Source: a phage. From it: a stretch of 64,000 nt of DNA. The number at the start of each line of letters is the position of its first letter. Positions within the stretch are counted from its first letter, which is position 1. The position numbers and the translations under genes are program-made. Where the stretch lies: the sequence record PV467748.1; one strand, 5' to 3'. Below the pieces are notes generated by a model. The model was not told where the DNA came from. It saw only the letters and a list, made by a program, of their open reading frames with translations, and did no database searches. Below, piece by piece: positions 16,462 to 48,686 of this stretch.

Positions 16462-16653
16462 TTATATTACGAAAATAGCTTTATCACCATTTGCATCAGT
16501 GACTTCATAGGTATCTTCGTGGTAAAGTGGAATAATCCAAGTCACACCATCATCAGCAATAATATGGATAGCTTCTTGGTCTTTTGATATGATTTCATAT
16601 TCTTCGAATAACTCGAATACAGAAATCTTAGAGCCCGTACACATTGCACTCAT
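16462..16653 (-). CDS. hypothetical protein (~63 aa)
   Basis: ATG at 16653; track start is an upstream TTG. Confidence 0.35.
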   Translation of the reverse strand: MSAMCTGSKISVFELFEEYEIISKDQEAIHIIADDGVTWIIPLYHEDTYEVTDANGDKAIFVI

Positions 16654-16849
16654 ATTGTTCCCTTCTTTCAATCAGTTGGCGATGGGCCTTTTTAAGTTTA
16701 CGAAGCTGGCGCTTAGTCGGCCGTGCAACATAAGCTTGAGTAGTTACTCGTCCAAAAACACCGTACTTAGGTGAAGGAGAATCGATAAAGACTTCCCACT
16801 GGCAGGAGTAACCATATACCGCTTTAGAGAATTGAGTTAAAACAAACAT
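16628..16849 (-). CDS. small basic protein with RPTKRQLRKLKK motif (family member 1)
   Basis: shares xPTKxQxR motif with 17637..17876, 41607..41792 and 48462..48686. Confidence 0.45.
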   Translation of the reverse strand: MFVLTQFSKAVYGYSCQWEVFIDSPSPKYGVFGRVTTQAYVARPTKRQLRKLKKAHRQLIERREQYECNVYGL

Positions 16850-16850
16850 A

Positions 16851-17291
16851 TTAACCTCGATTCATAAAGGCATTAAAAATCTGGTCGTCGATTGAATAAA
16901 CCGGAGCTTCCAGAATTTTCAACAGACTGTTTTTGATATACTTGCTAGGGATATCCATATTAACGAGGTCGTTCAATTCGTTGTCCGGGTGGATATCTTT
17001 AAATTCAAACCCATCAAACTCAACCTTGTCAGGAATACCATCGGCGAAAAAATAAACCAATTGGTGCATTGTATTGCATGAAAATAATTTAGACCTCACC
17101 GCAATAAGTTCTTGCCAATGGTTTAATTCTCTGTTAAGAAGTTTATGAGCCATTGTAATTCGATCATCGCTATCAACAAGAAAATAACCTAGGTATTGGT
17201 GGTCGTCGCTCCAAAACATCCTGTATGCTTGTGCATTTGGATTTTTACAACGAAGCTTTTTGATAACTAAATTCCTGTTAATCTTATTCAC
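16851..17291 (-). CDS. hypothetical protein (146 aa)
   Basis: ORF only. Confidence 0.45.
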   Translation of the reverse strand: MNKINRNLVIKKLRCKNPNAQAYRMFWSDDHQYLGYFLVDSDDRITMAHKLLNRELNHWQELIAVRSKLFSCNTMHQLVYFFADGIPDKVEFDGFEFKDIHPDNELNDLVNMDIPSKYIKNSLLKILEAPVYSIDDQIFNAFMNRG

Positions 17292-17577
17292 CTGTCACCT
17301 CTTTAACGATATTTTTGTTATCGAAATTAGCATCACAGTACAGAACATAGTTATACTGCATAACACCACTAGAAGCCAATTGGTCAGATACTTCTTTAAC
17401 CATATCAGGACGGTCGCGTTTAGTGATGTTCATGATATCAGCATAAATCTGATGCTCAACCGCTTCTTGATCGGCAGTCATAGACCATTCACAAAGGTCT
17501 TTATCCAATCCGGCAGTTACCGGAGCCGTGCCACATGATGCTACTGTAAGGATTGCTGCGATTAATAACTTTTTCAT
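17284..17577 (-). CDS. sp: Spackle periplasmic superinfection-exclusion protein
   Basis: 97 aa; signal peptide; DKDLCEWSMTADQ...VMQYNYVLYCD matches remembered T4 Sp. Confidence 0.85.
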   Translation of the reverse strand: MKKLLIAAILTVASCGTAPVTAGLDKDLCEWSMTADQEAVEHQIYADIMNITKRDRPDMVKEVSDQLASSGVMQYNYVLYCDANFDNKNIVKEVTGE

Positions 17578-17597
17578 TTTTAACTCCTCATTAGTGG

Positions 17598-17640
17598 ATA
17601 GGTCTATAGTATCACTACCATAGACTGATGTAAACTTTAT
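17598..17640 (-). promoter_or_regulatory. T4-type early promoter upstream of sp
   Basis: minus GTTTACATCAGTCTATGGTAGTGATACTATAGACC; SD GAGGAG before the sp ATG. Confidence 0.6.
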
Positions 17641-17876
17641 TTTAACGAATCTTCCAAATAAATTTTACGGAATTTACGTTTGGTCTGACGAATCTGACGC
17701 TTAGTAGGCTTCACAGGAAATTCGAAGAACTCTACATATTCCTGTTCGTAATCATTATGACCTACCGAAAGAACTAGTTCCCAGTTGTTTACATTTCGTT
17801 GGATAAACATCTTATGCTTACCAAAAGATTTATTCCAAAAAGAACTAGGAGTTGGCTTCATTAATACAATATTCAT
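17637..17876 (-). CDS. small basic protein with KPTKRQIRQTKRK motif (family member 2)
   Basis: motif shared with three other small ORFs. Confidence 0.45.
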   Translation of the reverse strand: MNIVLMKPTPSSFWNKSFGKHKMFIQRNVNNWELVLSVGHNDYEQEYVEFFEFPVKPTKRQIRQTKRKFRKIYLEDSLK

Positions 17877-18017
17877 TTATTCCTCGTCTTCATGTTTATG
17901 AGCAATTTCTTCGAATTCATGGTCACAATCTAAACAGGTTGCGTTGTCCCAAGCATCAAATACTGCCTGGTCTTCACATACCGAACAACCACATACTACA
18001 CATTCAACCTCTTCCAT
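17877..18017 (-). CDS. small Cys-rich protein (46 aa), not in the ORF track
   Basis: MEEVECVVCGCSVCEDQAVFDAWDNATCLDCDHEFEE...; TAAATG junctions on both sides; SD GAGGA. Confidence 0.35.
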   Translation of the reverse strand: MEEVECVVCGCSVCEDQAVFDAWDNATCLDCDHEFEEIAHKHEDEE

Positions 18018-18221
18018 TTAGATTTCCTCAATGCGGGCATCATATTCAAAAACTTTATTATCATTAACAAAGGCTTTCACTAGTGCATTATTCACTTCTG
18101 CATACTGCACTGTAACCCATTCAATCATTTTTTGGTCACTAACATCCAGCGCAGTTTCTTTGGTAAACATATTACCATTTTCAAACCAACCAATAAACAC
18201 TACGTTCTCTAATTTATACAT
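18018..18221 (-). CDS. dmd: Dmd-like antitoxin (copy 1)
   Basis: VVFIGWFENGNMFTKE...VQYAEVNNALVKAFV matches remembered T4 Dmd. Confidence 0.75.
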   Translation of the reverse strand: MYKLENVVFIGWFENGNMFTKETALDVSDQKMIEWVTVQYAEVNNALVKAFVNDNKVFEYDARIEEI

Positions 18222-18416
18222 TTAGATTTCCTCAATACGGGCATCATGTTCATAAACTTCTACGTCGTCGACATACGCCTTAACCAAAATACTATTGACT
18301 TCAGCGAATTGGGTAGTCACCCACACGATATCGTTTTCACGCACTGAAGCTTCTTTGGTAGAGGTGTCGCCGTTATTAAAACAGCATACAAATTTTACCT
18401 TAACCAATTTAGTCAT
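18222..18416 (-). CDS. dmd: Dmd-like antitoxin (copy 2, diverged paralog)
   Basis: VKFVCCFNNGDTSTKE...TTQFAEVNSILVKAYV; both copies end ...DARIEEI. Confidence 0.7.
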   Translation of the reverse strand: MTKLVKVKFVCCFNNGDTSTKEASVRENDIVWVTTQFAEVNSILVKAYVDDVEVYEHDARIEEI

Positions 18417-18746
18417 TTAGATTTCCTCGCAGAAGGCCCATTCAGCATGATAAACCGTAGCACCTTTAGTATCATTTAAACAAACCACATCTACCGGAGC
18501 AATTACACGATAAAGACGGGGTTCTCCTCCCACTGAACGAGCTGCACGTCCAGCATAAATCTTAGCCAAACCGATATCTTCAGTAAAGAACACTCGATTC
18601 AGGTTTTTCTTACGACCGGTTTCAGACAAAACTCCTGTTTCCTCAGGAGGACAAAGCATATTACCGATATTAGCAACACTACAACTTCCATGGTAATACA
18701 CTTTATATTCTGCTTTACAGTCGATGGTTTTCATTTTGTTCTCCAA
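18417..18746 (-). CDS. hypothetical protein (109 aa) with YYHGS motif
   Basis: own promoter at 18752-18790; T4 has no gene between 41 and dmd as far as I recall. Confidence 0.45.
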   Translation of the reverse strand: MENKMKTIDCKAEYKVYYHGSCSVANIGNMLCPPEETGVLSETGRKKNLNRVFFTEDIGLAKIYAGRAARSVGGEPRLYRVIAPVDVVCLNDTKGATVYHAEWAFCEEI

Positions 18747-18751
18747 GTTGA

Positions 18752-18790
18752 TAGGTCTATAGTATCATGCCTACAGGAGATGTAAACCCT
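18752..18790 (-). promoter_or_regulatory. T4-type early promoter
   Basis: minus GTTTACATCTCCTGTAGGCATGATACTATAGACC. Confidence 0.6.
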
Positions 18791-18816
18791 TAAAACAAAA
18801 AGGAGCCGAAGCTCCT
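18788..18816 (-). terminator. intrinsic terminator downstream of gene 41
   Basis: aggagc-cgaa-gctcct hairpin followed by a U-rich tract. Confidence 0.55.
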
Positions 18817-20255
18817 TAAAATTTGATAGATGCTGCTAAATCGTCCAAATCACTTCTATTAACACGCGTCTGTCTATTGACCTCGGCTTGACGATTCATC
18901 TCACCTGTAGCCTCACGTACGGTGTTCACTGGGCCTGGGTTGGAATCGTCTTCAACTTCGTACCAACGTTGATTTCCTTTCTTAACACCAATCTTAAATT
19001 TGTTGTAGTAGCTCTTATCACCATAACGAGATTTAAGCTGCTTAACCATCTGCATACCCATCTGAGCAAATTCTTCTGTCTCGACCACACCTAACATGAA
19101 GTCTGCAGTGTGTGCAATACCAAAGGATTCAGCGATATCAGCCATATCGATTTCGGCTGCAACGTTCGCGCCACGAGTAGTCTGGGCCGCAGTCCACAGC
19201 AATAATTTCTTCTCTACTGCAAGGCCACGTAGTTCTTCGGCAACCATCTTAATCAATCCGTAACTGTTTTCAGAGAAAACTTTCGTACGAGACGATGCAC
19301 AGATGGCCAAGTAGTCAACGATAACGACCTGTGGGACAAAGTTTTGTTTGAGCTTGTATTCGTTTAATAATGCACGGAATGTATCGGCATTCGCACCGCC
19401 GGTAGGATACTGTTTAATCTTTAAACGACCTAAGGTAGCAGTTGAACGCCATTTATCCATCTTAGCTTTATATTCGGGCCACGAGACATGACCATCATCG
19501 ATATCATCCAGTGATACGTCCAGAAGGTTGGCATCAATACGCTTAGCACATACTTCCTCTGCCATCTCCATGGAGATATAAAGAACATCGTAACCGGATT
19601 GAAGGTAATCAGCAGCCAATGAACAAAGACCAAGAGACTTACCTACGTTTGTTCCTGCCAACAATACGTTTTCAGTACCAAACTCGGCACCGCCCTTGGT
19701 AATCTTATTCAGAATATTAAGTCGGAATGGAACTTTACGTGCTTTATCGGAATAACTTTTGAATCGTTCTTCATAGTCATCCATCCAGTCATGACCTAAT
19801 TCAGAATCGAAACAAATCGATAATGCATCACGCATGATATCTGGAATAGCACCAATACCTGGAAGTTTTCTATTTTGTTGCTCAACCGGAAGGTCGGCAT
19901 TAGTTTGGATTTCAATGATTTTTGAAGTTGCATTATACATCGCTGCTTTCTGAACGTATTTCTCCGTCTCTTTAACCAACCATTCTTGGTCTTCAGGTCC
20001 GGCATTCAGCGAACTTAAAAGCTCTTTAGCGCCTTGGTGTTCAACTTCTGAAAGCGTACTGTTATCTAATGCAATGCTCAATGCGTTCTTAGAAGGCACT
20101 GCATTATATTCATTGACGTGTTTTTTAATTTCTTTGAAAAGGGTCTTTGCAGGACCCTGGTCAAAATAAGAATCATTCATATAAGGCCAGACCTTAGTGA
20201 AATAATCACTATTGCCTAACAGTTGAGCCAAAATAGTTTCTACCACTTCCACCAC
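18816..20255 (-). CDS. 41: replicative DNA helicase (DnaB-like)
   Basis: 479 aa; collinear with remembered T4 gp41 (KVWPYM...GPAK, LLAGTNVGKSLGL). Confidence 0.9.
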   Translation of the reverse strand: MVEVVETILAQLLGNSDYFTKVWPYMNDSYFDQGPAKTLFKEIKKHVNEYNAVPSKNALSIALDNSTLSEVEHQGAKELLSSLNAGPEDQEWLVKETEKYVQKAAMYNATSKIIEIQTNADLPVEQQNRKLPGIGAIPDIMRDALSICFDSELGHDWMDDYEERFKSYSDKARKVPFRLNILNKITKGGAEFGTENVLLAGTNVGKSLGLCSLAADYLQSGYDVLYISMEMAEEVCAKRIDANLLDVSLDDIDDGHVSWPEYKAKMDKWRSTATLGRLKIKQYPTGGANADTFRALLNEYKLKQNFVPQVVIVDYLAICASSRTKVFSENSYGLIKMVAEELRGLAVEKKLLLWTAAQTTRGANVAAEIDMADIAESFGIAHTADFMLGVVETEEFAQMGMQMVKQLKSRYGDKSYYNKFKIGVKKGNQRWYEVEDDSNPGPVNTVREATGEMNRQAEVNRQTRVNRSDLDDLAASIKF

Positions 20256-20569
20256 CTCTTAGATTTAATTTTATCCAGTTCTTCTTGTATTTGCATTGTA
20301 ACACATTTTTCTACATGAAGCGCTAGCTCTTCTTTTCGGTCTTCGGAAGGTGTTCCGAAATCAACCGACACTTTTCCATCTTTCTCAATAACAATATTCA
20401 TCACATAAACGATGTGAGCAGTGCCATCAGGTAATGTAAGCATAATTTCCTGCTTAACAGAACCCATTGACTTACGGATTATATCTAATGATTTCTCATA
20501 ATAACGAGGGTCACTAGGACCCTCTTCGGTATCTTTAACAAAATTATCTAAATCAGATAAATCAGTCAT
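20240..20569 (-). CDS. 40: gp40-like protein (109 aa)
   Basis: position between 41 and uvsX as in T4; sequence not verified. Confidence 0.45.
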   Translation of the reverse strand: MTDLSDLDNFVKDTEEGPSDPRYYEKSLDIIRKSMGSVKQEIMLTLPDGTAHIVYVMNIVIEKDGKVSVDFGTPSEDRKEELALHVEKCVTMQIQEELDKIKSKRWWKW

Positions 20570-21743
20570 GGTCGCTCACAAAATTCATATTTTCTAAATC
20601 GTTTTCGATATCAGCTGCGCTTTGAGTGTCGCCACTCAATTTAACTGCAACGTTCTTAGAGACACGAGAGTTAATAAGGTCGTTCACCGCATCATCGACT
20701 TCTTTAATAGAATTAATTGCACCAAGCTTATACTTATTCTCGATTGCTTCACGGAACGGGGCATGTTTAAACAGTGGTCCCCAGAACTCGACACAATCGG
20801 TAGCTTTAGCACGCCATGATTTTTCTTCTTGAACCATTTCACCTGTGGTTTCGTCAAGGAATGCACGATTATACCAACCAGCTTTAGGTTTCACAACAAA
20901 GCCAATATCAGTAGCCATTTCAAGCAATCCACTGAATGGGTCGATACCACCTTCAAAGTTCACAGTAATTGGGAACGTTGATTTCTCTTTAACAGTACGA
21001 GATTTTTCGGCCTTCAGGGTGAAGTCATAACCAGTGAGCTCGGTGCCATCTTTAACCTGACGTTTAGAGATAAAGAATACGGTAGAAGCAGAGTACAGAA
21101 TACCGGTACCGCCACCCATAATCTCTTTAGGATACATTCCACCAATTTCCATAGCCGTATGGTTAATTGCTACACAAGGGATATCCTTGATGGTCAGATA
21201 AGGTGTTACGATACGGAACAGAGATTTCAGTGACTTAGCACGGGTCATATCACCTACAACTTTCTCGTTCAAAGCATCTTCGGTTTCTTTCTTAGAAGCG
21301 GTGTTACCGATGGAGTCGATAAAGATAATAACCTTTTCGCCACGAGTAATTTCTTCTAATTGGTTGGTCATATCAACTTTAAGCTGTTCGACTGACTGGA
21401 TTGGAGTATGGACTACTCGTTCCAAATCAACACCCATCGAACGGAAATAAGATTCTGAAGCACCAAACTCAGAGTCATAGAACAAACAAATTGCGTCTGG
21501 ATATTTCTTCATATATGCCGCAACCATGGTAAGTCCAAACAACGTTTTAAAGTGTTTAGATGGAGCAGCAAAGATTGTCAAACCTGATTGTAAGCCTGCA
21601 TTCAACGCACCGCCTAATGCAATATTCAGCATAGGGATACGAGTAGGAACTTCGTCACGACCATTAAACAATTTAGATTTGGTCAGGTCGGCAGTCATTT
21701 TAGAAGTAGAAGCTTTAATCAAACGGGATTTTAAATCAGACAT
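20562..21743 (-). CDS. uvsX: UvsX recombinase (RecA/Rad51-like)
   Basis: 393 aa; near-collinear with remembered T4 UvsX. Confidence 0.9.
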   Translation of the reverse strand: MSDLKSRLIKASTSKMTADLTKSKLFNGRDEVPTRIPMLNIALGGALNAGLQSGLTIFAAPSKHFKTLFGLTMVAAYMKKYPDAICLFYDSEFGASESYFRSMGVDLERVVHTPIQSVEQLKVDMTNQLEEITRGEKVIIFIDSIGNTASKKETEDALNEKVVGDMTRAKSLKSLFRIVTPYLTIKDIPCVAINHTAMEIGGMYPKEIMGGGTGILYSASTVFFISKRQVKDGTELTGYDFTLKAEKSRTVKEKSTFPITVNFEGGIDPFSGLLEMATDIGFVVKPKAGWYNRAFLDETTGEMVQEEKSWRAKATDCVEFWGPLFKHAPFREAIENKYKLGAINSIKEVDDAVNDLINSRVSKNVAVKLSGDTQSAADIENDLENMNFVSDHD

Positions 21744-21820
21744 TATATTTTTCCATAGGCATCATTATATTTTACTCACGTTTTAAGATAGGGTAATTAT
21801 ATCACTTCACATTTACAGCG

Positions 21821-22714
21821 TTAAAGGACCACGTCCTCATAACTTGGCATTTCGTGCTCAGAATGGATATGGGCACCGAAATAAATGAATTCAGCTAGAC
21901 CAGGATGGAATACTAAACCAGGATTCTCATGATAAATGATATGAGGTCTTGATTTCAGAATCTGATAATATTCAACCTTACTCGGTTTGAATTTAATAAT
22001 CTCTACATCAGGACGATAGTCTTCACGTTTAAATGAATCATTCGGATCGGTGATATAAAGACGAGCACCTTCAGCTGCAGCTTGGTCTACAACTCTTTCG
22101 AATTGATAGCACTTATCTGAAATACGGAATGGGTGGAAAATACCATCAATTTTAATAGGCGCTAGACCATCAGAGTAACGCTCAATTACTGCAGGATTAA
22201 TTACCTTTTGGTCTACAAAAATCTTATCAGAGGACGCACCTCGTGACACCAGGACGTCTTTCTGGCATTGGTTCAAGACCGTAGTATAAATCGAACGTTC
22301 AACTGAAGACACGTCGGTATCAATAAACTCATCGATGTAATAACGAGGAACTTCAGGGTCCATTGTAATGTTAAAGTTGAATTGTACAGTATGGGCACCA
22401 TCATAACCAGTGATATCGGTTACTAAGCCTGAGCAGTCATAGTATTCTATTAACGAATCAACAACGAACTCATTTTCGGACCAAAAATGTTTACGGGTTT
22501 CATAAGCATTTTCTTTATACCAAAGTGGTACGAAATTCAGTTCTGGGAATAATTCAATGCATTCTTTGATATCGCTCGAATTTCTAGGATAAGCCAGATA
22601 ATCACCTGGGCAAGCACGGTTTAAATGGAGTTGGAAATTACCGTCCTTAAGGACGGCATATTCACCTGTTTCGTAACTACGCATACTGAAAATAGGAACG
22701 ATAAACAAACTCAT
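21821..22714 (-). CDS. hypothetical protein (297 aa) in the beta-glucosyltransferase slot; candidate DNA glycosyl/modification transferase
   Basis: sits between uvsX and 42 where T4 has beta-gt, but does not resemble remembered T4 beta-gt. Confidence 0.3.
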   Translation of the reverse strand: MSLFIVPIFSMRSYETGEYAVLKDGNFQLHLNRACPGDYLAYPRNSSDIKECIELFPELNFVPLWYKENAYETRKHFWSENEFVVDSLIEYYDCSGLVTDITGYDGAHTVQFNFNITMDPEVPRYYIDEFIDTDVSSVERSIYTTVLNQCQKDVLVSRGASSDKIFVDQKVINPAVIERYSDGLAPIKIDGIFHPFRISDKCYQFERVVDQAAAEGARLYITDPNDSFKREDYRPDVEIIKFKPSKVEYYQILKSRPHIIYHENPGLVFHPGLAEFIYFGAHIHSEHEMPSYEDVVL

Positions 22715-23409
22715 TTCAGGAAACCTCGGACGTAGTCAAAATCACGTTCAAACACGTGTGCACTTACCATGGTGTGGGAATATGTACCTAAACCGACACC
22801 ACACTGTTCAGCAATAAAGGCCATCAGTTTACCCTGCAGATAGAAATCCAGCTGCATAACAATAGCACAGTTCTGTGAACGCATATGGGTATGTGCATAA
22901 AGACGTCCATCACGAATATAATATGTTACCGAATCGGTACATGGATATTCTAAGGATTCGTCAGAATCAAGGAGGGCTTGGTCTTGTTCTTGGAGAATCT
23001 GGAACACAACGCGTCTTGAGTTAGGTTTCTCTTTAAGCTCTTTAAGTAGGGCTGGGAGTTGGGCCACAATTCGGGGTCCATAGAAAGTGTTGAAGTTTGC
23101 AGGCAATACGTCACTTTTCGGCTTATCAATGAACTTAGCAACATTAGGATATTCCTTAAATGCTTCGGCGGCGTCAGTACCACCGGAAATCATAAACTTC
23201 CAGAAAGATTCGGCATAATCATAGTTGATACGATTAATACGAGGGTCGGTGAACTTGAATGTGCTTGCATCCAGTACTTCAACTGAAGCAGAACCAATTT
23301 CATAACAACGGCCGATACGAGAATCAACTGCAAACTGTGGAGCTTCCAGGATTTCTTCGTTCATTTGCTTAAACGCGTTTTCAAAACTAACAGCGGTAAT
23401 GTGTTTCAT
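22711..23409 (-). CDS. 42: dCMP hydroxymethylase (thymidylate-synthase fold)
   Basis: EYPCTDSVTYYIRDGRLYAHTHMRSQN aligns with remembered gp42 catalytic-Cys region; NSRRVVFQIL. Confidence 0.7.
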   Translation of the reverse strand: MKHITAVSFENAFKQMNEEILEAPQFAVDSRIGRCYEIGSASVEVLDASTFKFTDPRINRINYDYAESFWKFMISGGTDAAEAFKEYPNVAKFIDKPKSDVLPANFNTFYGPRIVAQLPALLKELKEKPNSRRVVFQILQEQDQALLDSDESLEYPCTDSVTYYIRDGRLYAHTHMRSQNCAIVMQLDFYLQGKLMAFIAEQCGVGLGTYSHTMVSAHVFERDFDYVRGFLK

Positions 23410-23948
23410 TTATTCACCTTATTTTCAATATATTCATTCAGACGTTTTAATTCTACCATATCGACGTTAAGCAAGTTATTATAACCGTCGTGATTTAAGA
23501 TTTTAAACACGTTTTCAAAACATGTTTCATATTGGCGGATAGTTAGGTTGAACTCATCTTTGGTTAATTTAATAAGGTCATCTTCAAAGTCTTTATCCAG
23601 TGGATTACGGGTTAAAATAACCTCAATAATATTGAATTCAGATTTAAACCTTTTCCAATCTTCCAGTTCTACATAAGGGTCCATTTCACCACGAAGGAAT
23701 CCCGAGTAAACAATATTACTTGGATAACCACGGTCAAGGATGTAAACGAAATTAGGGTCTAAAAACTTATACAACGTCTCGACTAAAGCCTTGTCATTAT
23801 CGGTCCCTAATGAAATGCATTTGCCATTAATCTTTTTAGGGAAATCAATAAGACGATATTTCTTATCAGAATCAGATAAAAGCGATTCAATTAAAGTAGA
23901 CTTCCCGGAATTATCCGGGCCGTCGATAACAATGATTTTTGGTTTCAC
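23406..23948 (-). CDS. P-loop nucleotide kinase, thymidylate-kinase-like
   Basis: Walker A IIVIDGPDNSGKSTLI; Tmk-like LDRGYPSNIVYSG motif; no counterpart at this position in T4. Confidence 0.6.
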   Translation of the reverse strand: MKPKIIVIDGPDNSGKSTLIESLLSDSDKKYRLIDFPKKINGKCISLGTDNDKALVETLYKFLDPNFVYILDRGYPSNIVYSGFLRGEMDPYVELEDWKRFKSEFNIIEVILTRNPLDKDFEDDLIKLTKDEFNLTIRQYETCFENVFKILNHDGYNNLLNVDMVELKRLNEYIENKVNK

Positions 23949-24319
23949 GGATGATATGCCTTATAGGTTTCAAGAGTTCCTTCACGAACCATTTCTTTAA
24001 AGTGGTCAGGACGGATTGCTCGGTCATCGATGATAAAAGTATAACTTGGTTTATGCGTAAGCAAATTATGATATTTCAAACCAATCTTTTCAAGGTTCTT
24101 AACCAATGCGGGAACTACTTCAACTAAGATTCGACCCGGGCCGCATGAAGTCATGCCACGAGCAGTGAACAACGTAATCTCGTGGCCTTCATCATAAAGC
24201 TTATTAATCATGGACACCATTTCGGTGTCAGGTTTAAAGTTTTCGTAATCACGATTAGAGTCCCAGACCGTGATTGTGTTATCGATATCAAAACACAGAT
24301 GCATTAAATTTTCTTCCAT
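23945..24319 (-). CDS. HAD-superfamily phosphatase (small, capless)
   Basis: motif I CFDIDNTIT (DxDxT), motif II LFTAR, motif IV IIDD. Confidence 0.6.
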   Translation of the reverse strand: MEENLMHLCFDIDNTITVWDSNRDYENFKPDTEMVSMINKLYDEGHEITLFTARGMTSCGPGRILVEVVPALVKNLEKIGLKYHNLLTHKPSYTFIIDDRAIRPDHFKEMVREGTLETYKAYHP

Positions 24320-40987: not shown

Positions 40988-41096
40988 ATATTAGTTACAA
41001 CAAATAACCATTGGGCAGGATACTCAACACCCATAATACGCACTGCATCGTTCAGAGATTCGGCTAAAGCATAAAATGTGTAGCCATAAAAATTAA

Positions 41097-41570: not shown

Positions 41571-41606
41571 AATAAAACCCTTACCATTATTAGATAAGGG
41601 TATTTA

Positions 41607-41792
41607 TTATTTTTCGAATGTACTATAAAACGAGCGATGTAATCGTTTAAATTGACGCATCATCTTTTTGGTAGGTCGAGTGTATAACCCTACACAGGTG
41701 GCCATAAACTGGTCAGTAGGACTTCCTTTGATAAGAAGTTTCCAGAACTTTGCGCCATTTAATTTTTCAGTATAAATCAGTTCAGTTTTCAT
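41607..41792 (-). CDS. small basic protein with RPTKKMMRQFKR motif (family member 3)
   Basis: shared motif. Confidence 0.4.
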   Translation of the reverse strand: MKTELIYTEKLNGAKFWKLLIKGSPTDQFMATCVGLYTRPTKKMMRQFKRLHRSFYSTFEK

Positions 41793-41983
41793 CAGAACGG
41801 CCTATCAGCAAAGCGAAGTTGGGCTTCAAGCCAATGGATATAATCAGCTGCAGCTTTAATCAAGCCGGATTCTTCATCAGGTAACTTACGAGAATCTGAC
41901 AATTCATAAAGTGAATGTTCAATCAGACGGCCTTTATGACGGCCAATTTCAATTTTGGTACTCATAGCCATATTCCATATCAA
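41792..41983 (-). CDS. hypothetical protein (63 aa)
   Basis: ORF only. Confidence 0.35.
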   Translation of the reverse strand: MIWNMAMSTKIEIGRHKGRLIEHSLYELSDSRKLPDEESGLIKAAADYIHWLEAQLRFADRPF

Positions 41984-42191
41984 TTAAATCATTGTTTGAA
42001 GGTTCATTATACTCTATTTCGGAATTGTTGTAAACAGGTTCCTCTGGCTCGGTAGGTTCTATCGTATCCCACCGAGCGACATACCATGGCTTAACGGTCA
42101 CACCACCAACTTGACACTTCAAAATCAGGCTCGCCGTTTTCCCAATACCAAGGGCCAACTGGATGCCAATCGCCATGCTCATCTTCTTCAA
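41949..42191 (-). CDS. hypothetical acidic protein (start uncertain; overlaps upstream ORF by ~100 nt)
   Basis: track start is TTG; in-frame ATGs at 42182 and 42176. Confidence 0.3.
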   Translation of the reverse strand: MKKMSMAIGIQLALGIGKTASLILKCQVGGVTVKPWYVARWDTIEPTEPEEPVYNNSEIEYNEPSNNDLIDMEYGYEYQN

Positions 42192-42399
42192 ATTCTTCAG
42201 ATTCTAGCCCAACGTATTGCCATTGGACTTCATAAGCAGTGCCACCGATTACAACAGTATTCTCACCATACGGATTAGCCACAACAAAATCAATACCTTC
42301 TGCTTTAGCCAACCAAACCATGTATTCATAAAGTTTATATTCTAGGTCGTCTTCAGTACCATCACCTAGAAAAATGGTCTGTTCGTTTAATCCAATCAT
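42091..42399 (-). CDS. hypothetical acidic Trp-rich protein (102 aa)
   Basis: ATG at 42399 overlaps the stop of the upstream peptide (ATGA). Confidence 0.45.
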   Translation of the reverse strand: MIGLNEQTIFLGDGTEDDLEYKLYEYMVWLAKAEGIDFVVANPYGENTVVIGGTAYEVQWQYVGLESEEFEEDEHGDWHPVGPWYWENGEPDFEVSSWWCDR

Positions 42400-42557
42400 T
42401 TAAAGTTCCAGAATGAAGCACCAACCAGAAATAAAGGCCAACAAATCATAGACGTCAGCCACCAACAAAAGTCACCGGAATCATCTAATTTAGCTAGAGT
42501 CTTAGCATAACCAATACCGATGATAAGATACAAAACAACCAACGATAATTCAATCAT
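42396..42557 (-). CDS. small membrane peptide (53 aa), not in the ORF track
   Basis: MIELSLVVLYLIIGIGYAK...; ATGA overlaps at both ends. Confidence 0.3.
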   Translation of the reverse strand: MIELSLVVLYLIIGIGYAKTLAKLDDSGDFCWWLTSMICWPLFLVGASFWNFK

Positions 42558-42817
42558 TTGAAATATGCTCGCAGTTGGTCAAAGCCGCCAATAGAAGTTC
42601 CATCAGGAGCAAATACCTGAGGCATAGTCAAACCTACTTGAGATTCACGACCAAGAGCAGCCAGGAGTTCAGAAATCTTCTCGTCATCAAATACGCCTTT
42701 TTCCGGCATCACGTTAATGAATTCGTAAGGTTGCTTCTTAACATCAAGTAGACGTTTGGCATTATCACAGAAAACACAGCGGTGAATATTTGAATCATAA
42801 CCATAAACTTTAAACAT
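42554..42817 (-). CDS. nrdC: thioredoxin/glutaredoxin NrdC
   Basis: MFKVYGYDSNIHRCVFCDNAKRLL...MPQVFAPDGTSIGGFDQLRAYFK near-identical to remembered T4 NrdC. Confidence 0.9.
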   Translation of the reverse strand: MFKVYGYDSNIHRCVFCDNAKRLLDVKKQPYEFINVMPEKGVFDDEKISELLAALGRESQVGLTMPQVFAPDGTSIGGFDQLRAYFK

Positions 42818-42818
42818 T

Positions 42819-43070
42819 TTAAATTCCTAATACTTGTTTGAATGCTTCAGAACGGTCAAGTTCTGTTCCATATTTTTCGAGGTGTTCGTATTTTAAATCA
42901 TACACATCAGATAGTATATTATTATACGAACGAGTTAAAGCAGATTTCAATACTGAATAACTGTCCGGAAATTTACCGTGCTCTTTATAATAAGCTAGAG
43001 TAAGTTCACGAACCGCCTTATCGGCGGCCTCTACATATTCTTTACGCTTTGCCATTTTCGTCTCGCTCAA
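42819..43070 (-). CDS. hypothetical protein (83 aa)
   Basis: ORF only. Confidence 0.4.
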
Positions 43071-43263
43071 ATTTGTGCTTACAATGACGGCATTTATACT
43101 GAAGAGGGTTATGACGCCAATAAGTCAATTGGACCTGTTCAGTTCCACATTCAGGACAATTTGGAACATTCTTAGAAGCTCGTTCGCGACGTTCTACAAT
43201 TTTAATAATTTGATTCCAATCAGGAATACTTTGGTCGATATCATCGGCTAATTGGTATTTCAT
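43042..43263 (-). CDS. zinc-ribbon protein (73 aa)
   Basis: CPECG...CRHCKH. Confidence 0.4.
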
Positions 43264-44270
43264 TTCAACAGCTCCAGAGCTTGTTCAAGACGGTCTAAAC
43301 GATTGGTAGACTCTTCCCAAAGTTTCTTGGCAGCGGTATATTGGCCAGCCAGTTTTTTGTTAATAGCAAGGGCATCTTTATACGCTTTTTCTAAGGCAAC
43401 GATTTCCGGTAACTTGGATTTAGTAATTGGTGTAGGAGCCATGATAGGGCTGTTCAAGTCGTTAATCAAGTCTTCTAATGTAGCAGGCTCTTTATCAGTA
43501 TTCACAATTTCCTCACATTTTTCTTGGTAAATTTCGGCGTCAGTTTTTGGAACAGGGCATTTGATTTCGCGAACTGTTACCAAAACTTCATATCCTTTCC
43601 AGCCTAAGTGGTGTTTAACTTCTTGGGTCTCATATTTCTCTACGGTATCCATCAAAGCTAAGGCTTGTTCGATAGTATTCAAGGTATCGTAAGCAATATC
43701 TTGATACTTTACAACTTCCGCATCATCTTTAGGTTTCCTATTAGGTGACCAAATAACAGAAATAATAGCTTTTCCTTTATAACTATTTGTTTTAATCATG
43801 CAATTAGCCATCGGGTGAATAGTACGGCAATCACCGGAAACTATAGTTTTAGAGGCCGCTTTGAGAATTAATGCAGAGTTAGCCTTGAATTCGCTAACCC
43901 AACGTTGCGGAAATAAACTACTAGGGTCCATACCTTTAATTTTGATATAACTATTTATGGTATCACCAAACCATTTGTAGCTAACAACACGGTTGGAACC
44001 TGGGTGTTTCTCTTTGCCAAACTCTGAAAGGATGTCCTTATTGACCAGTCGCGAAAGCAGTCGAGAACCTTTAAATGTTTTAATGATATCATGAATGCAC
44101 AAACGGCCTGCAATCTTTTCGATTTCAGCTTTGAAACAGCGCGATAATGCATCATCAATTTGGTCGACCCATTTATTGATATTAGAAACTATTACCACAT
44201 ATGGGGTTAATGGAGGGGTATTGGCAGTGATATACGTAGTAAAGGCATTGATGTATTCGGTACGGGTCAT
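43260..44270 (-). CDS. hypothetical protein (336 aa; start refined) with C-terminal coiled coil
   Basis: ATG at 44270 with SD GGAG; promoter element at 44285-44335. Confidence 0.5.
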   Translation of the reverse strand: MTRTEYINAFTTYITANTPPLTPYVVIVSNINKWVDQIDDALSRCFKAEIEKIAGRLCIHDIIKTFKGSRLLSRLVNKDILSEFGKEKHPGSNRVVSYKWFGDTINSYIKIKGMDPSSLFPQRWVSEFKANSALILKAASKTIVSGDCRTIHPMANCMIKTNSYKGKAIISVIWSPNRKPKDDAEVVKYQDIAYDTLNTIEQALALMDTVEKYETQEVKHHLGWKGYEVLVTVREIKCPVPKTDAEIYQEKCEEIVNTDKEPATLEDLINDLNSPIMAPTPITKSKLPEIVALEKAYKDALAINKKLAGQYTAAKKLWEESTNRLDRLEQALELLK

Positions 44271-44329
44271 GATATTCTCCTCAGTAGTTGATAAAAGGAT
44301 TATACTCCATCCGTCCTTGGATGTAAACA

Positions 44330-45199
44330 TTATTTTAGAGCTAATAGTGCCGCGCGAAGCTTGTCACGTTGGGCTTCCATATTCTTGATGCTATTCAGAA
44401 CGTCTTGAATACTCTTTTTCTCATCTTCAATCTGACCATTTAAACGGTGGATTGATTCCTGAATGCTATCTGCATAATAGGTCTCAATAGGTTTCATCGT
44501 AGGGTTAGTAACAACCAAAGAATTATCAGGTTTAATTTTCCAATGATACGGTTCTGAATTGAATGGCCTCGGCACAGCAGTGGTTTTGAATTTGTCATAA
44601 GTAGCATACTGACCTACAGGCCCATATGACGCAGTGGAGATTCGACGTTCCATTTGTGGTTCCTTTTGTTGGGATTGATAAGGGGCATAAGACAAAAGAT
44701 ATTCACGAGTTAGTTTAACATTAAAATACACCGCATCAGGCCGTCCGGAACAATCAGCATATTCATCGGTTGTAACCTTATATGATTCTACGGCCTTAAT
44801 ACGAGTCATTGCTTCTCTGAATAAGGTTTCGAATGCTTCACGAAGGGCCTTATTGCCTTTTGAGGTAGGACGGAAACGAACTTGGATACCGTCAGCCAGA
44901 ATATTAATGACTAGGTTACGAGCCGTAAAATTAATATTCTTGATATTGACAGGAACCGTAGAAATACGTCCTGCAGTAGCCAAGAGGTCTTTAATATTAG
45001 CTCGTAATGTCGCGCCAAATAAATGAGCTGGGCTACGGCAATAATCGTTCAAAGAACTAATATAAGTTCCTTTACGGCCTACGCCGTAAGTGTAGTTACC
45101 ATTACGAATCTGGCCGAAGTCGGCCAGCCGATCGATAGCGATACGACGTGTGGTATCAAAATCATATCGGGAATATTCTTTACGCGTTTTAATGTTCAT
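44330..45199 (-). CDS. hypothetical protein (~289 aa) with C-terminal coiled coil
   Basis: start uncertain (45199 or 45223). Confidence 0.4.
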   Translation of the reverse strand: MNIKTRKEYSRYDFDTTRRIAIDRLADFGQIRNGNYTYGVGRKGTYISSLNDYCRSPAHLFGATLRANIKDLLATAGRISTVPVNIKNINFTARNLVINILADGIQVRFRPTSKGNKALREAFETLFREAMTRIKAVESYKVTTDEYADCSGRPDAVYFNVKLTREYLLSYAPYQSQQKEPQMERRISTASYGPVGQYATYDKFKTTAVPRPFNSEPYHWKIKPDNSLVVTNPTMKPIETYYADSIQESIHRLNGQIEDEKKSIQDVLNSIKNMEAQRDKLRAALLALK

Positions 45200-45200
45200 A

Positions 45201-45401
45201 TTAAAGTCCAAATAATTTTTCATAGAATTTAGCTAAAGGCCAAGTCACAATAGAAACTATTCCAAATAAAGCAAGCACTGGCCAAATAAAGGTAGCGAAT
45301 ACTGCTTCGCCACCTGAGCTAATTTCCATATGTTTGCGGCCAATCAGAACAGTAATGAATCCTAATGCAAGGTACAGAAGAATAAAACCTGCGATTTCCA
45401 T
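45201..45401 (-). CDS. small membrane protein (66 aa)
   Basis: two hydrophobic segments. Confidence 0.4.
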   Translation of the reverse strand: MEIAGFILLYLALGFITVLIGRKHMEISSGGEAVFATFIWPVLALFGIVSIVTWPLAKFYEKLFGL

Positions 45402-45403
45402 AA

Positions 45404-46376
45404 TTAATCCTTAAGAAGATTTAAGATATCGATATATTTCTGGCGTTCAGCCTTAGCTTTGGCATTCAGACCAGAGAGTCGGAAAATCTCATCATCTTGT
45501 TGTTGAATTGTAACATTCAAGCAAGTAAGCAAATTGCTAAAATACTCGATTTGAGCTTGATGCTTCTCATTGCTGCGCACCGGTACAGGTTCTGGTTTAG
45601 GAGCTTGTTCTGAATGCTCCTCAGCCTGGTCTTTAATTTTATAAAGTTTAATACGCTGACCCACTCCAGTTTCGGCATCACCAAAACTAAGAACACCGCG
45701 CTGTTCTAATACAGACAGGGCCAATCGGAGATGGAACTTCCAGTTGTCATATTGACAACCACTAAAAGTTGAAATGGTATACTCATTTTCATTTCCGGGG
45801 TGGTTAACAATATTAAAGATAATCCGATCACCTGAACCATTAGTCTTAAAGGTCATTTGTTTATCTTGACCTTTTGCAAGTCGAGCACCAAGAGCCAGTA
45901 GACGTCGTTGGTTGGCATGAAGGTCTTGAACAACTTCGTCAAATGACATCGTCATCACCTGAACCATTAGTCTTAAAGGTCATTTGTTTATCTTGACCTT
46001 TTGCAAGTCGAGCACCAAGAGCCAGTAGACGTCGTTGGTTGGCATGAAGGTCTTGAACAACTTCGTCAAATGACATCGTCGGGATTAAACGTCCGTAGAG
46101 GTCATAGCCTTTGTTATAATTTTTAAGAATAATTTTGGCATTAGCACGAGACAACATACCCGTTTTACGAAGAGTTTTCATGACTCGGTCTTCTAACGTA
46201 AACGAACCTTTAGTCTTGTCAAAGATTTTAGTGAAGTCATCTTTAACAGTACAAACGTTGAACTTGTCCCACATCATATATAGAACCTTTTCAACTACTT
46301 CTTTAGTACTCGGAATACGACCAAATTTAATAACTTTTTTAACTTCAGAACGAATTTGATTAATTGCCTGTGACAT
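45404..46376 (-). pseudogene. gene disrupted by a 127-bp tandem duplication (two overlapping ORFs; removing one copy restores a 281-codon frame)
   Basis: track ORFs 45404..45967 and 45939..46376 both contain MSFDEVVQDLHANQRRLLALGARLAKGQDKQMTFKTNGSGD; 973 nt minus 127 = 846 = 282 codons. Confidence 0.6.
45827..46080. repeat. perfect tandem direct repeat, 2 x 127 bp
   Basis: 45827-45953 is identical to 45954-46080 by direct reading. Confidence 0.85.
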
Positions 46377-46439
46377 AATAATTTCCTCAGTAAGTAATTA
46401 AGAACCTAGAACCATTATACCATCCTTGGTATAAAGCGT

Positions 46440-46964
46440 TTATGCGAGAACCGTCTTTAAACGCTCTTCAAATTTCTGAAGCAGAGCTTGGCGTTCAACT
46501 CGTTGTGATTTGTACTGCTCGATACGACCTGAAGTGAGGGCGTACTGTTCGTTTACTGATTCCCGCATGAATTCAGGAATCTCTTTACAAGCTTTGATTT
46601 CGTCAAACTTATCAATAACAGCTTGTTGTTCGGCAATCAGATTATCGAAATAAGCGATATCAGATTTAACGTTTGCCAGGTCGGATTCAGTAGGCATTAA
46701 ACGTTTGTTACGTTCAGCTTGATAAGCTTGATTGTTTTCACGACTCCAGTGAAGAGTACGTTTTTTGTTAGTGTTTTTATAGAGCTCTACAATACCAACT
46801 GAATCGATGACTGCAATCCAGTTCCAACGGCTTTTGTAAATCTCTCCTCCAGATACGGTAATCTCATTACCACAAGCAACGTCGTTAAAGAACTTGCTTT
46901 GTTTTTCAGATTTGAAATTACCATTGTTAAAATTAATCAGTGAAAAAATATCTTTAGCGTTCAT
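46440..46964 (-). CDS. hypothetical protein (174 aa)
   Basis: SD GGAGG; early promoter at 46975-47018. Confidence 0.45.
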   Translation of the reverse strand: MNAKDIFSLINFNNGNFKSEKQSKFFNDVACGNEITVSGGEIYKSRWNWIAVIDSVGIVELYKNTNKKRTLHWSRENNQAYQAERNKRLMPTESDLANVKSDIAYFDNLIAEQQAVIDKFDEIKACKEIPEFMRESVNEQYALTSGRIEQYKSQRVERQALLQKFEERLKTVLA

Positions 46965-46974
46965 GATAACCTCC

Positions 46975-47018
46975 AGTAGTTGATAGGTCTATAGTATCAT
47001 TTCTACTGGAGATGTAAA
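46975..47018 (-). promoter_or_regulatory. T4-type early promoter
   Basis: minus GTTTACATCTCCAGTAGAAATGATACTATAGACC. Confidence 0.6.
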
Positions 47019-47021
47019 CAA

Positions 47022-47363
47022 CTAATAGAAACTTTTTTCACCTGCTTGACCACTAAACCATGCGGATTGAGTGTTCTCTTTCCGTTGGTGTTTAATACGA
47101 ATAAGGTATTCGTTCCTGATGGCGCAGAGTTCATCTCTGAAGTCGACTGCCAACTTAACCTGCTTACGGTCTAGATTTATTAAGGCCTGGGTCTTCGCGG
47201 CCAAGGCCAGTCTCTTGTAGTCTCCTTCTTCACAATCGGTTTTGTAAACCTTCTCGGCGAATTGGTGTTTAAATTCATTATCATAGTCTTCAATAGACTG
47301 TTTCATGGCATTAGAGTATTTCAACTCTGCTTTTATAAGGTCATAACTAAATTGTTCGAACAT
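47022..47363 (-). CDS. hypothetical protein (113 aa)
   Basis: ORF only. Confidence 0.4.
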   Translation of the reverse strand: MFEQFSYDLIKAELKYSNAMKQSIEDYDNEFKHQFAEKVYKTDCEEGDYKRLALAAKTQALINLDRKQVKLAVDFRDELCAIRNEYLIRIKHQRKENTQSAWFSGQAGEKSFY

Positions 47364-47373
47364 AATTTCACCT

Positions 47374-48354
47374 TTATTTCAGAAGTGTAACTTCAGCGAT
47401 TTCGCTCCAGTCATTTTTATCGGTGGCAATGAAGTCCGCCAGATAAAGAGCCGTACGTAATGATACGTTACGAAGACGAGATACATTGGCCTTCATCCAT
47501 GCTAGAGCTTGATAAGTCTCAGCATCAGTCAGACCTCGGTTTTGCATCATATCAGTGGACAGGATAACGTCTTCAACACGAACCATAATCTCTTCATTCG
47601 AGTGAACTCCGAGGTCTAAGTAAACTGAACGAGATACTAAAGCCTGGAGGTGTGGAGCAAGTTTAGTGCCGCGTTCTAATTCACGGTCAATATCAACGTT
47701 GGTGATGAACACGATGGTGCCTTCATATTCGAATTCTTTATCGATATTTTTATCATCGAGGTAAGAACTTGAAGTGCTCCAGCACACCTTACGTTTTTCA
47801 CCGGTATCCAATGCCGCTTTTAACAGGTTCAGGATATCCATATCAGAGAATACATCGACATCATCGATAAGAAGAACACTATTAGGGCCGCGGTTATTCC
47901 AAAGCTGCTCGTAAAGACCGATTCCACTAATCTTTCCGTTGATTGATTTATATTCGATAGTTTCATTTTCGTGGGCATTCTGTAATGCTTTATCCAAAGA
48001 ATACGTTTTACCAATACCTGCGGCACCAGAGATGATAAGGGAACGAATTTTACCATCGATGATTCCGTTAGTCATCATGTTCATTACTTTAAAACGTTTG
48101 TTGATGCGGTGTTTCATTTCTTCAGCGGATTCAGTAACCACTACAGGAGCTTCAGCACCTTCCATTTCAACATCACATTTGAACACCCATATACCACGTT
48201 CAACACCATCAATCTGTACGAATACCTTGCCATCACCGAGGTGAGCTTCGGATTCATGAATTTTATTAGGGAACCAGGTTTTACCTGAACTCATGAACGT
48301 ACCAGAGATTTCATTACCGCGATAGATACCTTTGTTGATTTTGATAGTTAACAT
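47374..48354 (-). CDS. AAA+/P-loop ATPase (326 aa; start refined)
   Basis: Walker A ISGAAGIGKTYSL, Walker B VLLIDDVD. Confidence 0.55.
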   Translation of the reverse strand: MLTIKINKGIYRGNEISGTFMSSGKTWFPNKIHESEAHLGDGKVFVQIDGVERGIWVFKCDVEMEGAEAPVVVTESAEEMKHRINKRFKVMNMMTNGIIDGKIRSLIISGAAGIGKTYSLDKALQNAHENETIEYKSINGKISGIGLYEQLWNNRGPNSVLLIDDVDVFSDMDILNLLKAALDTGEKRKVCWSTSSSYLDDKNIDKEFEYEGTIVFITNVDIDRELERGTKLAPHLQALVSRSVYLDLGVHSNEEIMVRVEDVILSTDMMQNRGLTDAETYQALAWMKANVSRLRNVSLRTALYLADFIATDKNDWSEIAEVTLLK

Positions 48355-48444
48355 TATATTCTCCGTTTCACTCAGTAGATTTGATAGGTCCATAATAACA
48401 TGCTCTACGAGGTTGTAAACACTTTTTTGCACTAAACCCAAAAA

Positions 48445-48468
48445 AAGGACCCCGAAGGGTCCTAAATT
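48445..48468 (-). terminator. UUCG-tetraloop hairpin
   Basis: aggaccc-cgaa-gggtcct preceded by an A-run (U-run on the transcript). Confidence 0.5.
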
Positions 48469-48686
48469 GCGCTCCAATAATTATGGAAGCGGATATTATT
48501 GATAGCCCAGTTAATACAACGTCTTATCTGCTTAGTCGTAGGCTTGCATACGTACTTGAAATTGATTCTTCTACCGGTTTCTCTACAAACTACTTCAAGA
48601 TACCAACGACAGGTTTTATGAGGTCTTCCATATGACAGGAAAACCTTGATTTCTTCTTTAACGGTAATAAGAGTTGTGGTTGTCAA
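48462..48686 (-). CDS. small basic protein with KPTTKQIRR motif (family member 4)
   Basis: shared motif. Confidence 0.4.
   Translation of the reverse strand: MTTTTLITVKEEIKVFLSYGRPHKTCRWYLEVVCRETGRRINFKYVCKPTTKQIRRCINWAINNIRFHNYWSAI

Follow-up and report, generated by a model that had tools for sequence, protein, structure and literature searches.

Four short open reading frames (ORF1 to ORF4) in a T4-like Dhakavirus, found in a 64 kb stretch of its DNA (the window), encode products that share a short motif of the PTKxQxR type. This raises the question of whether the motif is an interaction module shared by proteins that are otherwise unrelated, as was suggested in a preliminary description of the sequence, or the best conserved part of a domain that the four have in common. 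The coordinates given in that description were correct, and the genes were found to be on the minus strand; a plus-strand reading at the same coordinates was rejected as it has stops throughout, and the minus-strand translations are open.

Table 1. Predicted features of the four paralog loci, with positions in the 64 kb window
Feature	Position	Strand	Remarks
ORF1, 73 aa, TifA-family paralog	16628..16849	-	Flanked by 61.2-like gene and 61.1/primase genes; dmd-sp-61.x 'anti-TA island' region
ORF1 motif RPTKRQLR	16700..16723	-	Helix N-cap and first turns of basic helix; equivalent to T4 TifA R52-R59
ORF2, 79 aa, T4 gp61.4 (TifA) ortholog by position	17637..17876	-	Downstream of dmd, upstream of sp
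ORF2 motif KPTKRQIR	17688..17711	-	
Two tandem dmd genes	18018..18416	-	Upstream of ORF2, common predicted early transcription unit; Pfam Dmd E 2e-20 and 1e-15
Promoter-like site	18786-18759		dmd/ORF2 predicted early unit
ORF3, 61 aa, minimal TifA-family paralog	41607..41792	-	Between pin remnant and gene 49 (endonuclease VII)
ORF3 motif RPTKKMMR	41655..41678	-	M where Q is usual
Terminator-like hairpin and T-run	48446..48463	-	Directly after ORF4 stop; closes RlaP-ORF4 unit
ORF4, 74 aa, TTG start, most divergent TifA-family paralog	48462..48686	-	Overlaps RlaP gene 3' end by 29 nt
ORF4 motif KPTTKQIR	48522..48545	-	T replaces first K
RlaP-family nucleotidyltransferase (T4 NrdC.11 homolog)	48658..49698	-	Pfam PF10127 E 3e-12; 82% identical to T4 NrdC.11

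The pattern [RK]PT[KT][KR][QM][ILM]R had exactly four matches in the six-frame translation of the 64 kb, compared to approximately 7e-5 expected analytically. No match to this 8-residue pattern was obtained in 500 residue shuffles, a check set beforehand in the preliminary description, and the motif is above chance. The 5-residue core of the motif was seen five times, four of them inside ORF1-4, where 0.06-0.19 would be expected. Each ORF is preceded by a GAGG-type ribosome-binding site and is start/stop coupled to the gene upstream, with an ATG start for ORF1, a TGATG stop/start overlap for ORF3 and a GAGG site located 6 nt upstream of the TTG of ORF4. Promoter-like sites of the early type were also seen, as was operon coupling. 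All four ORFs are under purifying selection, with dN/dS values of 0.05-0.27 against orthologs at dS of up to about 3 (0.05 for ORF1 against the VR25 ortholog, 0.09-0.27 for ORF2, 0.05-0.10 for ORF3 and 0.10-0.24 for ORF4). They look like genuine genes, and the explanation that the motif arose by chance or that the ORFs are not genes, to which their shortness (61-79 aa), the TTG start of ORF4 and its lack of annotation in some RefSeq records would lend themselves, is barely credible given the motif counts, the selection, the ribosome-binding sites, the full-length matches to PHROG and Pfam profiles and the orthologs in hundreds of phage records.

The motif is found in ORF1 (ARPTKRQLRKLKK), ORF2 (KPTKRQIRQTKRK), ORF3 (RPTKKMMRQFKR) and ORF4 (KPTTKQIRRCINW), so that all four copies reported in the preliminary description are present, although ORF3 departs from the reported form in reading PTKKMMR. 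The Pro and Thr are invariant, and the RNA-binding positions that come next are K-R-R in ORF1 and ORF2, K-K-R in ORF3 and T-K-R in ORF4. The basic residues that were said to follow the motif are clear in ORF1-3, where 6-8 of the next 14 residues are K or R, similar to the TifA proteins of T4 and RB69, and only weakly present in ORF4 (3 of 14); a Pro-Thr followed by a basic cluster, as in the TifA family, is thus seen in ORF1-3 and in part in ORF4. The codons of the motif differ synonymously between the ORFs, showing that it is conserved as protein and not as a DNA repeat. A DNA-level repeat or mobile cassette was ruled out by these codon differences together with the unrelated flanks.

These residues have a published counterpart. 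T4 61.4 is TifA (ToxN inhibitory factor A), an RNA-binding inhibitor of the toxin ToxN (Srikant et al. 2022 eLife PMC9391042; Guegler et al. 2023 NAR PMC10853763). In T4 and RB69 TifA, P53, T54, K55, R56 and R59 cap and line a basic helix, and the protein needs them to bind RNA and to associate with ToxN (PMC10853763); in the P53A T54A and K55A R56A R59A mutants the binding of RNA and the inhibition of ToxN are both lost (Guegler 2023, PMC10853763). The ToxN endoribonuclease is finally sequestered in a ribonucleoprotein complex, and a variable loop of TifA tunes its specificity for ToxN. On sequence, the motif of ORF1-4 matches the published P53-T54-K55-R56-x-x-R59, that is, a Pro-Thr cap and basic RNA-binding helix.

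The profile search that had been proposed for the four proteins assigned them all to one family, and judged by their sequences ORF1-ORF4 are paralogous, diverged members of the TifA family (Pfam DUF7279, PF23945). In the Pfam search ORF1, ORF2, ORF3 and ORF4 scored 67.5, 68.6, 53.4 and 45.7 bits (E-values of 9.5e-19, 4.5e-19, 2.5e-14 and 6.2e-12), all above the curated gathering threshold of 24.5 bits, and the matches span the 53-position profile, starting at 1, 2 or 6 and ending at 52 or 53. Homologs that were retrieved independently all contained PF23945. Full-length matches were also obtained to PHROG groups 3272 (ORF1 and ORF3; E 2e-32 for ORF3), 2375 (ORF2) and 8921 (ORF4; E 2e-35); PHROGs therefore breaks one homologous family into several groups, whereas PF23945 takes in all four ORFs. 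Neither PF23945 nor PHROGs 3272, 2375, 8921 and 12748 have an assigned function, none of the four proteins matched a model in NCBIfam, and a literature search under the name DUF7279 found no paper.

Members of this family are basic proteins of 60-100 aa that are nearly confined to T4-like and a few other virulent phages. An exhaustive profile search gave 26 representatives at E<=1e-3, three of which (P0003, P0016 and P0017) are long repeat proteins and were judged to be spurious, and the hallmark KPTK(R/K)Q(I/L)R was found in 23 independent cluster representatives. The size of the family is underestimated, as short proteins limit the sensitivity of profile searches. By profile search T4 has one copy (61.4) compared to four in the Dhakavirus, where each paralog occupies its own conserved genomic position, distinct from those of the others. 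No further divergent copies were detected by either a 4-sequence or a 27-sequence profile in the window or in the other 105 kb of fDHCT2, the closest relative.

Pairwise identity among the four proteins is low at 26-34% (27-48% to T4 TifA) and the motif is by far their most conserved stretch, which would suit four proteins with no other relationship, each of which had taken up one short linear motif, a portable module for interaction. This is nevertheless very improbable, as a single Pfam domain is aligned over positions 1-53 and is recognised outside the motif. After deletion of the motif and everything C-terminal to it, DUF7279 was still matched by ORF1 (E 1.3e-5), ORF2 (8.4e-5) and ORF3 (5.5e-4), meaning that the N-terminal halves match in three of the four, and ORF4 truncated in the same way gave a weak match (E 0.053). 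A Trp approximately 21-26 residues upstream of the motif Pro is invariant; W, P, T and R are the invariant residues in an alignment of 21 family sequences. The 'unrelated N-termini' of the preliminary description are therefore not upheld, and its shared interaction module stands in altered form: the proteins are related and the motif marks a shared element, the helix through which TifA engages RNA and ToxN, present by homology of the whole domain and not as a graft.

ORF3 and ORF4 are also alike in predicted fold, both showing the three strands and capped helix of the TifA family in AlphaFold2 (AF2) models of moderate confidence (pLDDT 80 and 74, respectively) that are based on a shallow alignment of 21 sequences. 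In the ORF3 model strands at residues 2-9, 15-22 and 31-36 are followed by a helix at 42-60, with the Pro-Thr at P40 and T41, and in the ORF4 model strands at 3-16, 22-34 and 40-45 are followed by a helix at 51-73, with P49 and T50. In both, the helix starts at the residue directly after the Pro-Thr, in agreement with the published description of the TifA models. A fold search of the PDB with the ORF3 model found nothing significant (best E 0.48), a profile search of PDB sequences found nothing, and a fold search of viral predicted structures with the ORF4 model matched only uncharacterised phage proteins.

The closest comparison is with TifA of T4, RB69, T2 and T6. It shares with the paralogs the DUF7279 family, the Pro-Thr-capped basic C-terminal helix with K, R, R-type positions (in ORF1-3), the predicted three-strand-plus-helix fold, small size and a pI of about 10. 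ORF2 additionally shares the dmd-tifA-sp position and a predicted early promoter; the gene order is two dmd genes, a 46-aa ORF, ORF2, a promoter-like site and sp, and identity to the T4 61.4 locus is 46.6%. This early-operon position upstream of sp is held by ORF2 only, with ORF1, ORF3 and ORF4 at other loci, and further differences from TifA are that the specificity loop around T4 F41 is unlike in length and sequence in every paralog and that the helix of ORF4 is much less basic. Orthologs of ORF3 in Tequatroviruses (74-79% identity) are likewise located between pin and 49. Dmd (T4 gp61.5), an antitoxin-like inhibitor of the RNase toxins RnlA and LsoA, is comparable as a small phage protein, made early, that counters an endoribonuclease toxin of the host, and its gene adjoins tifA, with two tandem copies in the window. 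It differs in belonging to an unrelated family (Pfam PF17587), in binding its toxins directly without RNA and in having no Pro-Thr-capped basic helix.

Whether the paralogs inhibit toxins at all can be asked for two of them from published data. ORF1 is identical at 70 of 73 residues to the tifA_vB_EcoM_005 protein and ORF2 at 75 of 79 to JS98 gp61.4 (tifA_JS98). In a panel that was without ORF3- or ORF4-type proteins, tifA_vB_EcoM_005 and tifA_JS98 did not neutralise six ToxN homologs or TenpN, seven type III toxins, and expression of the ORF1-type protein was verified in the screen (Guegler 2023, PMC10853763). The label 'ToxN inhibitor' is therefore unsupported for ORF1 and ORF2, as their near-identical orthologs neutralised no toxin tested. 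This result would fit paralogs that are general nucleic-acid binders and work for the phage itself, in its gene expression or the metabolism of its genome (for example in mRNA stability, the control of translation or the binding of DNA), and not against host defences. The same holds for the binding of TifA in vitro to RNA of many sequences and also to ssDNA and dsDNA (PMC10853763), and for the neighbours of ORF3 and ORF4, which adjoin the genes of recombination endonuclease VII and of an enzyme modifying RNA 3' ends, respectively. Such a role appears rather unlikely, however. The only family member characterised so far acts specifically against a toxin and discriminates between partners, and ORF1 and ORF2 belong to the dmd/adfA/tifA stretch for which the TifA authors proposed an anti-TA island. 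Related phages differ in whether they carry the paralogs and in how many (one in T4, four in the Dhakavirus), a pattern usual for accessory genes of counter-defence and not for core ones.

ORF4 has an alternative of its own, which is that it serves the RNA-repair nucleotidyltransferase RlaP as accessory subunit or substrate adaptor and does not inhibit a toxin. A homolog of RlaP lies directly upstream of the ORF4-type gene, ending within a few bases of its start, at seven of seven other loci in several genera, with variable downstream genes (four loci from a family-wide scan of viral contigs, confirmed by ORF4 alone, were used only for this adjacency count). The 29-nt overlap and the common terminator suggest that RlaP and ORF4 are co-expressed, and RlaP acts on damaged RNA 3' ends. 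Such a role beside RlaP is rather unlikely: RlaP/NrdC.11 is present in T4 and other phages without an ORF4-type gene, ORF4 evolves faster than RlaP (56-80% identity across loci compared to 68-97%), and characterised bacterial RlaPs work alone in vitro. Among the RefSeq records in which ORF4 is left unannotated is that of QL01.

The reading that we prefer, and hold to be highly probable, is that ORF1-4 are TifA-family paralogs consisting of a sheet and a Pro-Thr-capped helix, of which ORF1-3 would bind RNA, with partners that have likely diverged. Each paralog is predicted to form a three-stranded antiparallel sheet, with the invariant Trp in the second strand, packed on the C-terminal helix, and the motif (R/K)-P-T-(K/T)-(K/R)-(Q/M)-(I/L/M)-R would form the start of that helix, namely its Pro-Thr N-cap and first two turns. 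From the conservation of these residues we infer that ORF1-3 bind RNA through a TifA-like helix, and the diverged sheet and loop surface of each paralog may contact a partner of its own, for which a host RNA-targeting toxin or defence nuclease is the most likely candidate. Early in infection the phage would thus produce a modest repertoire of RNA-dependent inhibitors. ORF4 may work differently, as much of its helix charge is lost and it is tied to the RNA-repair enzyme RlaP. An extension of this model, in which the paralogs are diversified RNA-dependent 'trap' inhibitors, each fitted by its variable sheet and loop surface to another host RNA-targeting toxin or defence nuclease, and in which the ORF4 lineage, with its de-charged helix and constant translational coupling to RlaP, is dedicated to phage RNA repair, coupling the neutralisation of toxins with the repair of damage, is speculative and on balance improbable.

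With the TifA family and its motif already described, no new kind of system is revealed; the unstudied part is that four copies are carried by one phage, and neither TifA paper uses the word 'paralog' (PMC9391042, PMC10853763). The four-copy set and the linkage to RlaP are modest leads. Their practical value is as a pointer to TifA homologs outside the T4/RB69 clade, with four conserved positions compared to the one T4 copy, and the strict linkage of RlaP to ORF4 gives a way into the study of the phage RlaP/NrdC.11 enzyme. If each paralog neutralises a different RNA-targeting defence, these proteins of 60-80 aa would be compact probes with which to find such defences and to forecast the hosts that therapeutic T4-like phages can infect.

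Four small basic proteins of this T4-like Dhakavirus (ORF1 to ORF4) are encoded at the intervals given in the preliminary description, but on the minus strand, the plus-strand reading of all four being interrupted by stops. The window is a dense minus-strand gene array (G+C about 39%) and has 92-95% DNA identity to the Dhakavirus T4-like phages (fDHCT2, QL01, JS98 group). A GAGG-type ribosome-binding site precedes each ORF, and all four are coupled to the gene upstream, with a TGATG overlap at the start of ORF3, and a TTG start and 29-nt overlap for ORF4. T4 early-type promoter-like sites (TTTACA-N16/17-TAnnAT) lie ahead of the dmd-ORF2, sp-ORF1 and pin-remnant-ORF3 units, and hairpins 3' of ORF3 and ORF4. 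Orthologs are present in hundreds of phage records, and dN/dS against those in other phages was 0.05-0.27 (with dS reaching about 3). The QL01 RefSeq record (NC_028847) contains an ORF4 homolog at 7769-8023, equivalent to window 48462-48686 (family-profile E 6.5e-7); it is not annotated there, and the record shows no gene between NrdC.10 and the nucleotidyltransferase.

Features of the four loci, in window coordinates
Feature	Position	Strand	Remarks
ORF1	16628-16849	minus	73 residues, open frame; primase-61.x-sp-dmd-helicase region
146-aa gene upstream of ORF1	16851-17291	minus	position of T4 61.2 (adfA, anti-DarT factor)
ORF2	17637-17876	minus	79 residues, open frame; primase-61.x-sp-dmd-helicase region
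Cys-rich acidic 46-aa ORF (MEEVECVVCGCSVCEDQAVFDAWDNATCLDCDHEF...)	17877-18017	minus	two CxxC-like pairs; between dmd and tifA ortholog
First tandem dmd gene	18018-18221	minus	Pfam Dmd (E 2e-20 and 1e-15 for the pair)
Second tandem dmd gene	18222-18416	minus	Pfam Dmd (as above)
ORF3	41607-41792	minus	61 residues, open frame; gene 49 immediately downstream
63-aa ORF	41792-41983	minus	matches PinA profile positions 88-136 of 136 only (C-terminal third)
Sigma-70-like promoter-like site, 11/12	42034-42006		just upstream of 63-aa ORF, where rest of pin expected
NrdC.10 homolog	47374-48477	minus	AAA/STAND-like NTPase matches; C-terminal HTH
Promoter-like site	48419-48392		separates RlaP-ORF4 unit from NrdC.10
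Clean hairpin terminator	48463-48446		separates RlaP-ORF4 unit from NrdC.10
ORF4	48462-48686	minus	74 residues, open frame; between NrdC.11 and NrdC.10 homologs
RlaP RNA-repair-type nucleotidyltransferase (NrdC.11 homolog)	48658-49698	minus

The xPTKxQxR motif described for these proteins is genuine and occurs far more often than chance would allow. Translation of the 64 kb in six frames gives exactly four matches to the pattern [RK]PT[KT][KR][QM][ILM]R, one per ORF, against about 7e-5 expected analytically, and 0 of 500 residue shuffles gave a match. It is present in all four ORFs, but ORF3 has Met in place of the Gln. Synonymous differences among the codons of the motif indicate that selection acts on the protein.

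The N-termini had been described as unrelated, which does not hold, as a single Pfam domain, DUF7279 (PF23945; the TifA family), is matched by all four over essentially its entire 53-position profile (E 6e-12 to 5e-19), with scores well clear of the gathering threshold. Truncation just before the motif leaves family matches for ORF1, ORF2 and ORF3 (E 1e-5 to 5e-4) and a weak one for ORF4 (E 0.053). A 21-sequence family alignment shows Pro-Thr to be invariant, together with a Trp located 21-26 residues N-terminal to it and an Arg five positions C-terminal to the Pro. Membership of the TifA family is close to certain, and pairwise identities of 26-34% indicate that ORF1 to ORF4 are old paralogs.

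ORF2 has 46.6% identity (91% coverage) to the T4 gene 61.4 locus and, like it, has dmd on its upstream side and sp on its downstream side. Srikant et al. gave gene 61.4 the new name tifA (PMC9391042); amplification of dmd-tifA allows T4 to escape the toxIN type III toxin-antitoxin system, and TifA inhibits the endoribonuclease ToxN (PMC9391042). TifA is predicted by AlphaFold to form a three-stranded sheet against a basic C-terminal helix, and the P53A T54A and K55A R56A R59A mutants lost RNA binding, ToxN neutralisation and ToxN co-precipitation (Guegler et al., PMC10853763). T4 TifA reads R52-P53-T54-K55-R56-Q57-I58-R59, exactly the motif described here. The motif thus corresponds to the start of the RNA-binding helix in a known family, comprising its N-cap and first two turns. 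The proposed shared interaction element stands as a nucleic-acid-binding helix, but not as a module on unrelated proteins.

AlphaFold2 models built on the family alignment agree with the published description for both ORF3 (strands 2-9, 15-22 and 31-36; helix 42-60; pLDDT 80) and ORF4 (strands 3-16, 22-34 and 40-45; helix 51-73; pLDDT 74), the helix beginning at the residue after Pro-Thr. Among solved structures, no significant match was found by fold search with the ORF3 model (best E 0.48) and none by sequence-profile search; predicted viral structures, searched with the ORF4 model, gave uncharacterised phage proteins only.

Guegler et al. had 'tifA_JS98' and 'tifA_vB_EcoM_005' in their neutralisation panel, which contained no ORF3- or ORF4-type protein (PMC10853763). 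ORF2 is identical to JS98 gp61.4 at 75/79 residues and ORF1 to the vB_EcoM_005 protein at 70/73, and JS98 carries both types; these are recognised family members. Apart from the proteins of T2, T4, T6 and RB69, no homolog in the panel neutralised TenpN or any of the six ToxN homologs; expression of the vB_EcoM_005 protein was verified (PMC10853763). RNA binding by ORF1 to ORF3 may reasonably be inferred: all three retain K/R at each of the three positions identified by mutagenesis and, as in TifA of T4 and RB69, 6-8 of the 14 residues that follow Pro-Thr are K/R. In the published model the helix holds RNA and the variable sheet/loop surface contacts a specific protein, which ends trapped on abundant RNA (PMC10853763); on that model, a natural reading of four diverged paralogs is that they would be inhibitors with different partners. 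A less likely alternative is that the paralogs have a housekeeping function in the metabolism of phage RNA or DNA, which would be consistent with the binding of DNA by TifA in vitro (PMC10853763).

ORF4 deviates from the other three, reading T-K-R at the key positions and having only 3 K/R in the 14 residues after Pro-Thr. ORF4-type genes directly follow an RlaP-family nucleotidyltransferase gene (T4 NrdC.11 homolog, PF10127) in 7/7 other loci (QL01, Gaprivervirus VR26, a Jiaodavirus infecting Klebsiella and four viral contigs), the downstream genes being variable; in T4, RlaP adjoins NrdC.10 with no such gene between. Together, these residues and the strict linkage suggest a modified role. 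RlaP enzymes, of which T4 NrdC.11 is cited as one, add one or two nucleotides to damaged-RNA 3' ends and help restore tRNA function (bioRxiv 10.64898/2025.12.29.696909), and ORF4 is possibly a partner of RNA repair.

Several observations concern the neighbouring genes. Of the two tandem dmd genes that lie upstream of the tifA ortholog, only the first is present in JS98, with identical sequence; the second is an additional, diverged copy of the RnlA/LsoA antitoxin-like gene. The Cys-rich ORF has no Pfam match, nor have ORFs 41949-42191 and 42091-42399 upstream of the pin remnant. The gene for the Lon-protease inhibitor PinA appears truncated in this Dhakavirus, and is absent altogether from QL01. 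The AdfA-profile match of the 146-aa gene is confined to its last 14 residues (E 0.007). After the motif, ORF1 ends in a second conserved tail, EQYECNVYGL (16628-16660), to which SWEGIHCD[IV]xGL corresponds in distant family members (P0008, P0009, P0011, P0012, P0038). This tail is absent from T4 and RB69 TifA and from ORF2 to ORF4, and may be the signature of a subfamily that has an additional element.

A 27-sequence family profile detects exactly four members in the window; the other roughly 105 kb of fDHCT2, the closest complete genome, contains none, and the T4 genome as a whole contains TifA alone. The conserved position differs from paralog to paralog: in both Dhakavirus and Gaprivervirus the ORF1-type gene follows a 61.2-like gene (that of VR25 is already annotated 'similar to T4 gp61.4'), ORF2-type genes follow dmd, and in many Tequatroviruses an ORF3-type gene (74-79% identity) separates pin from gene 49, T4 itself lacking one. 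The motif observation rediscovers a curated, partly characterised family and its published signature motif. The word 'paralog' is absent from both TifA papers, and several homologs per genome are not discussed in their searchable text. What interest remains is in the presence of four paralogs, where T4 has a single copy, and in the conserved RlaP-ORF4 gene pair.
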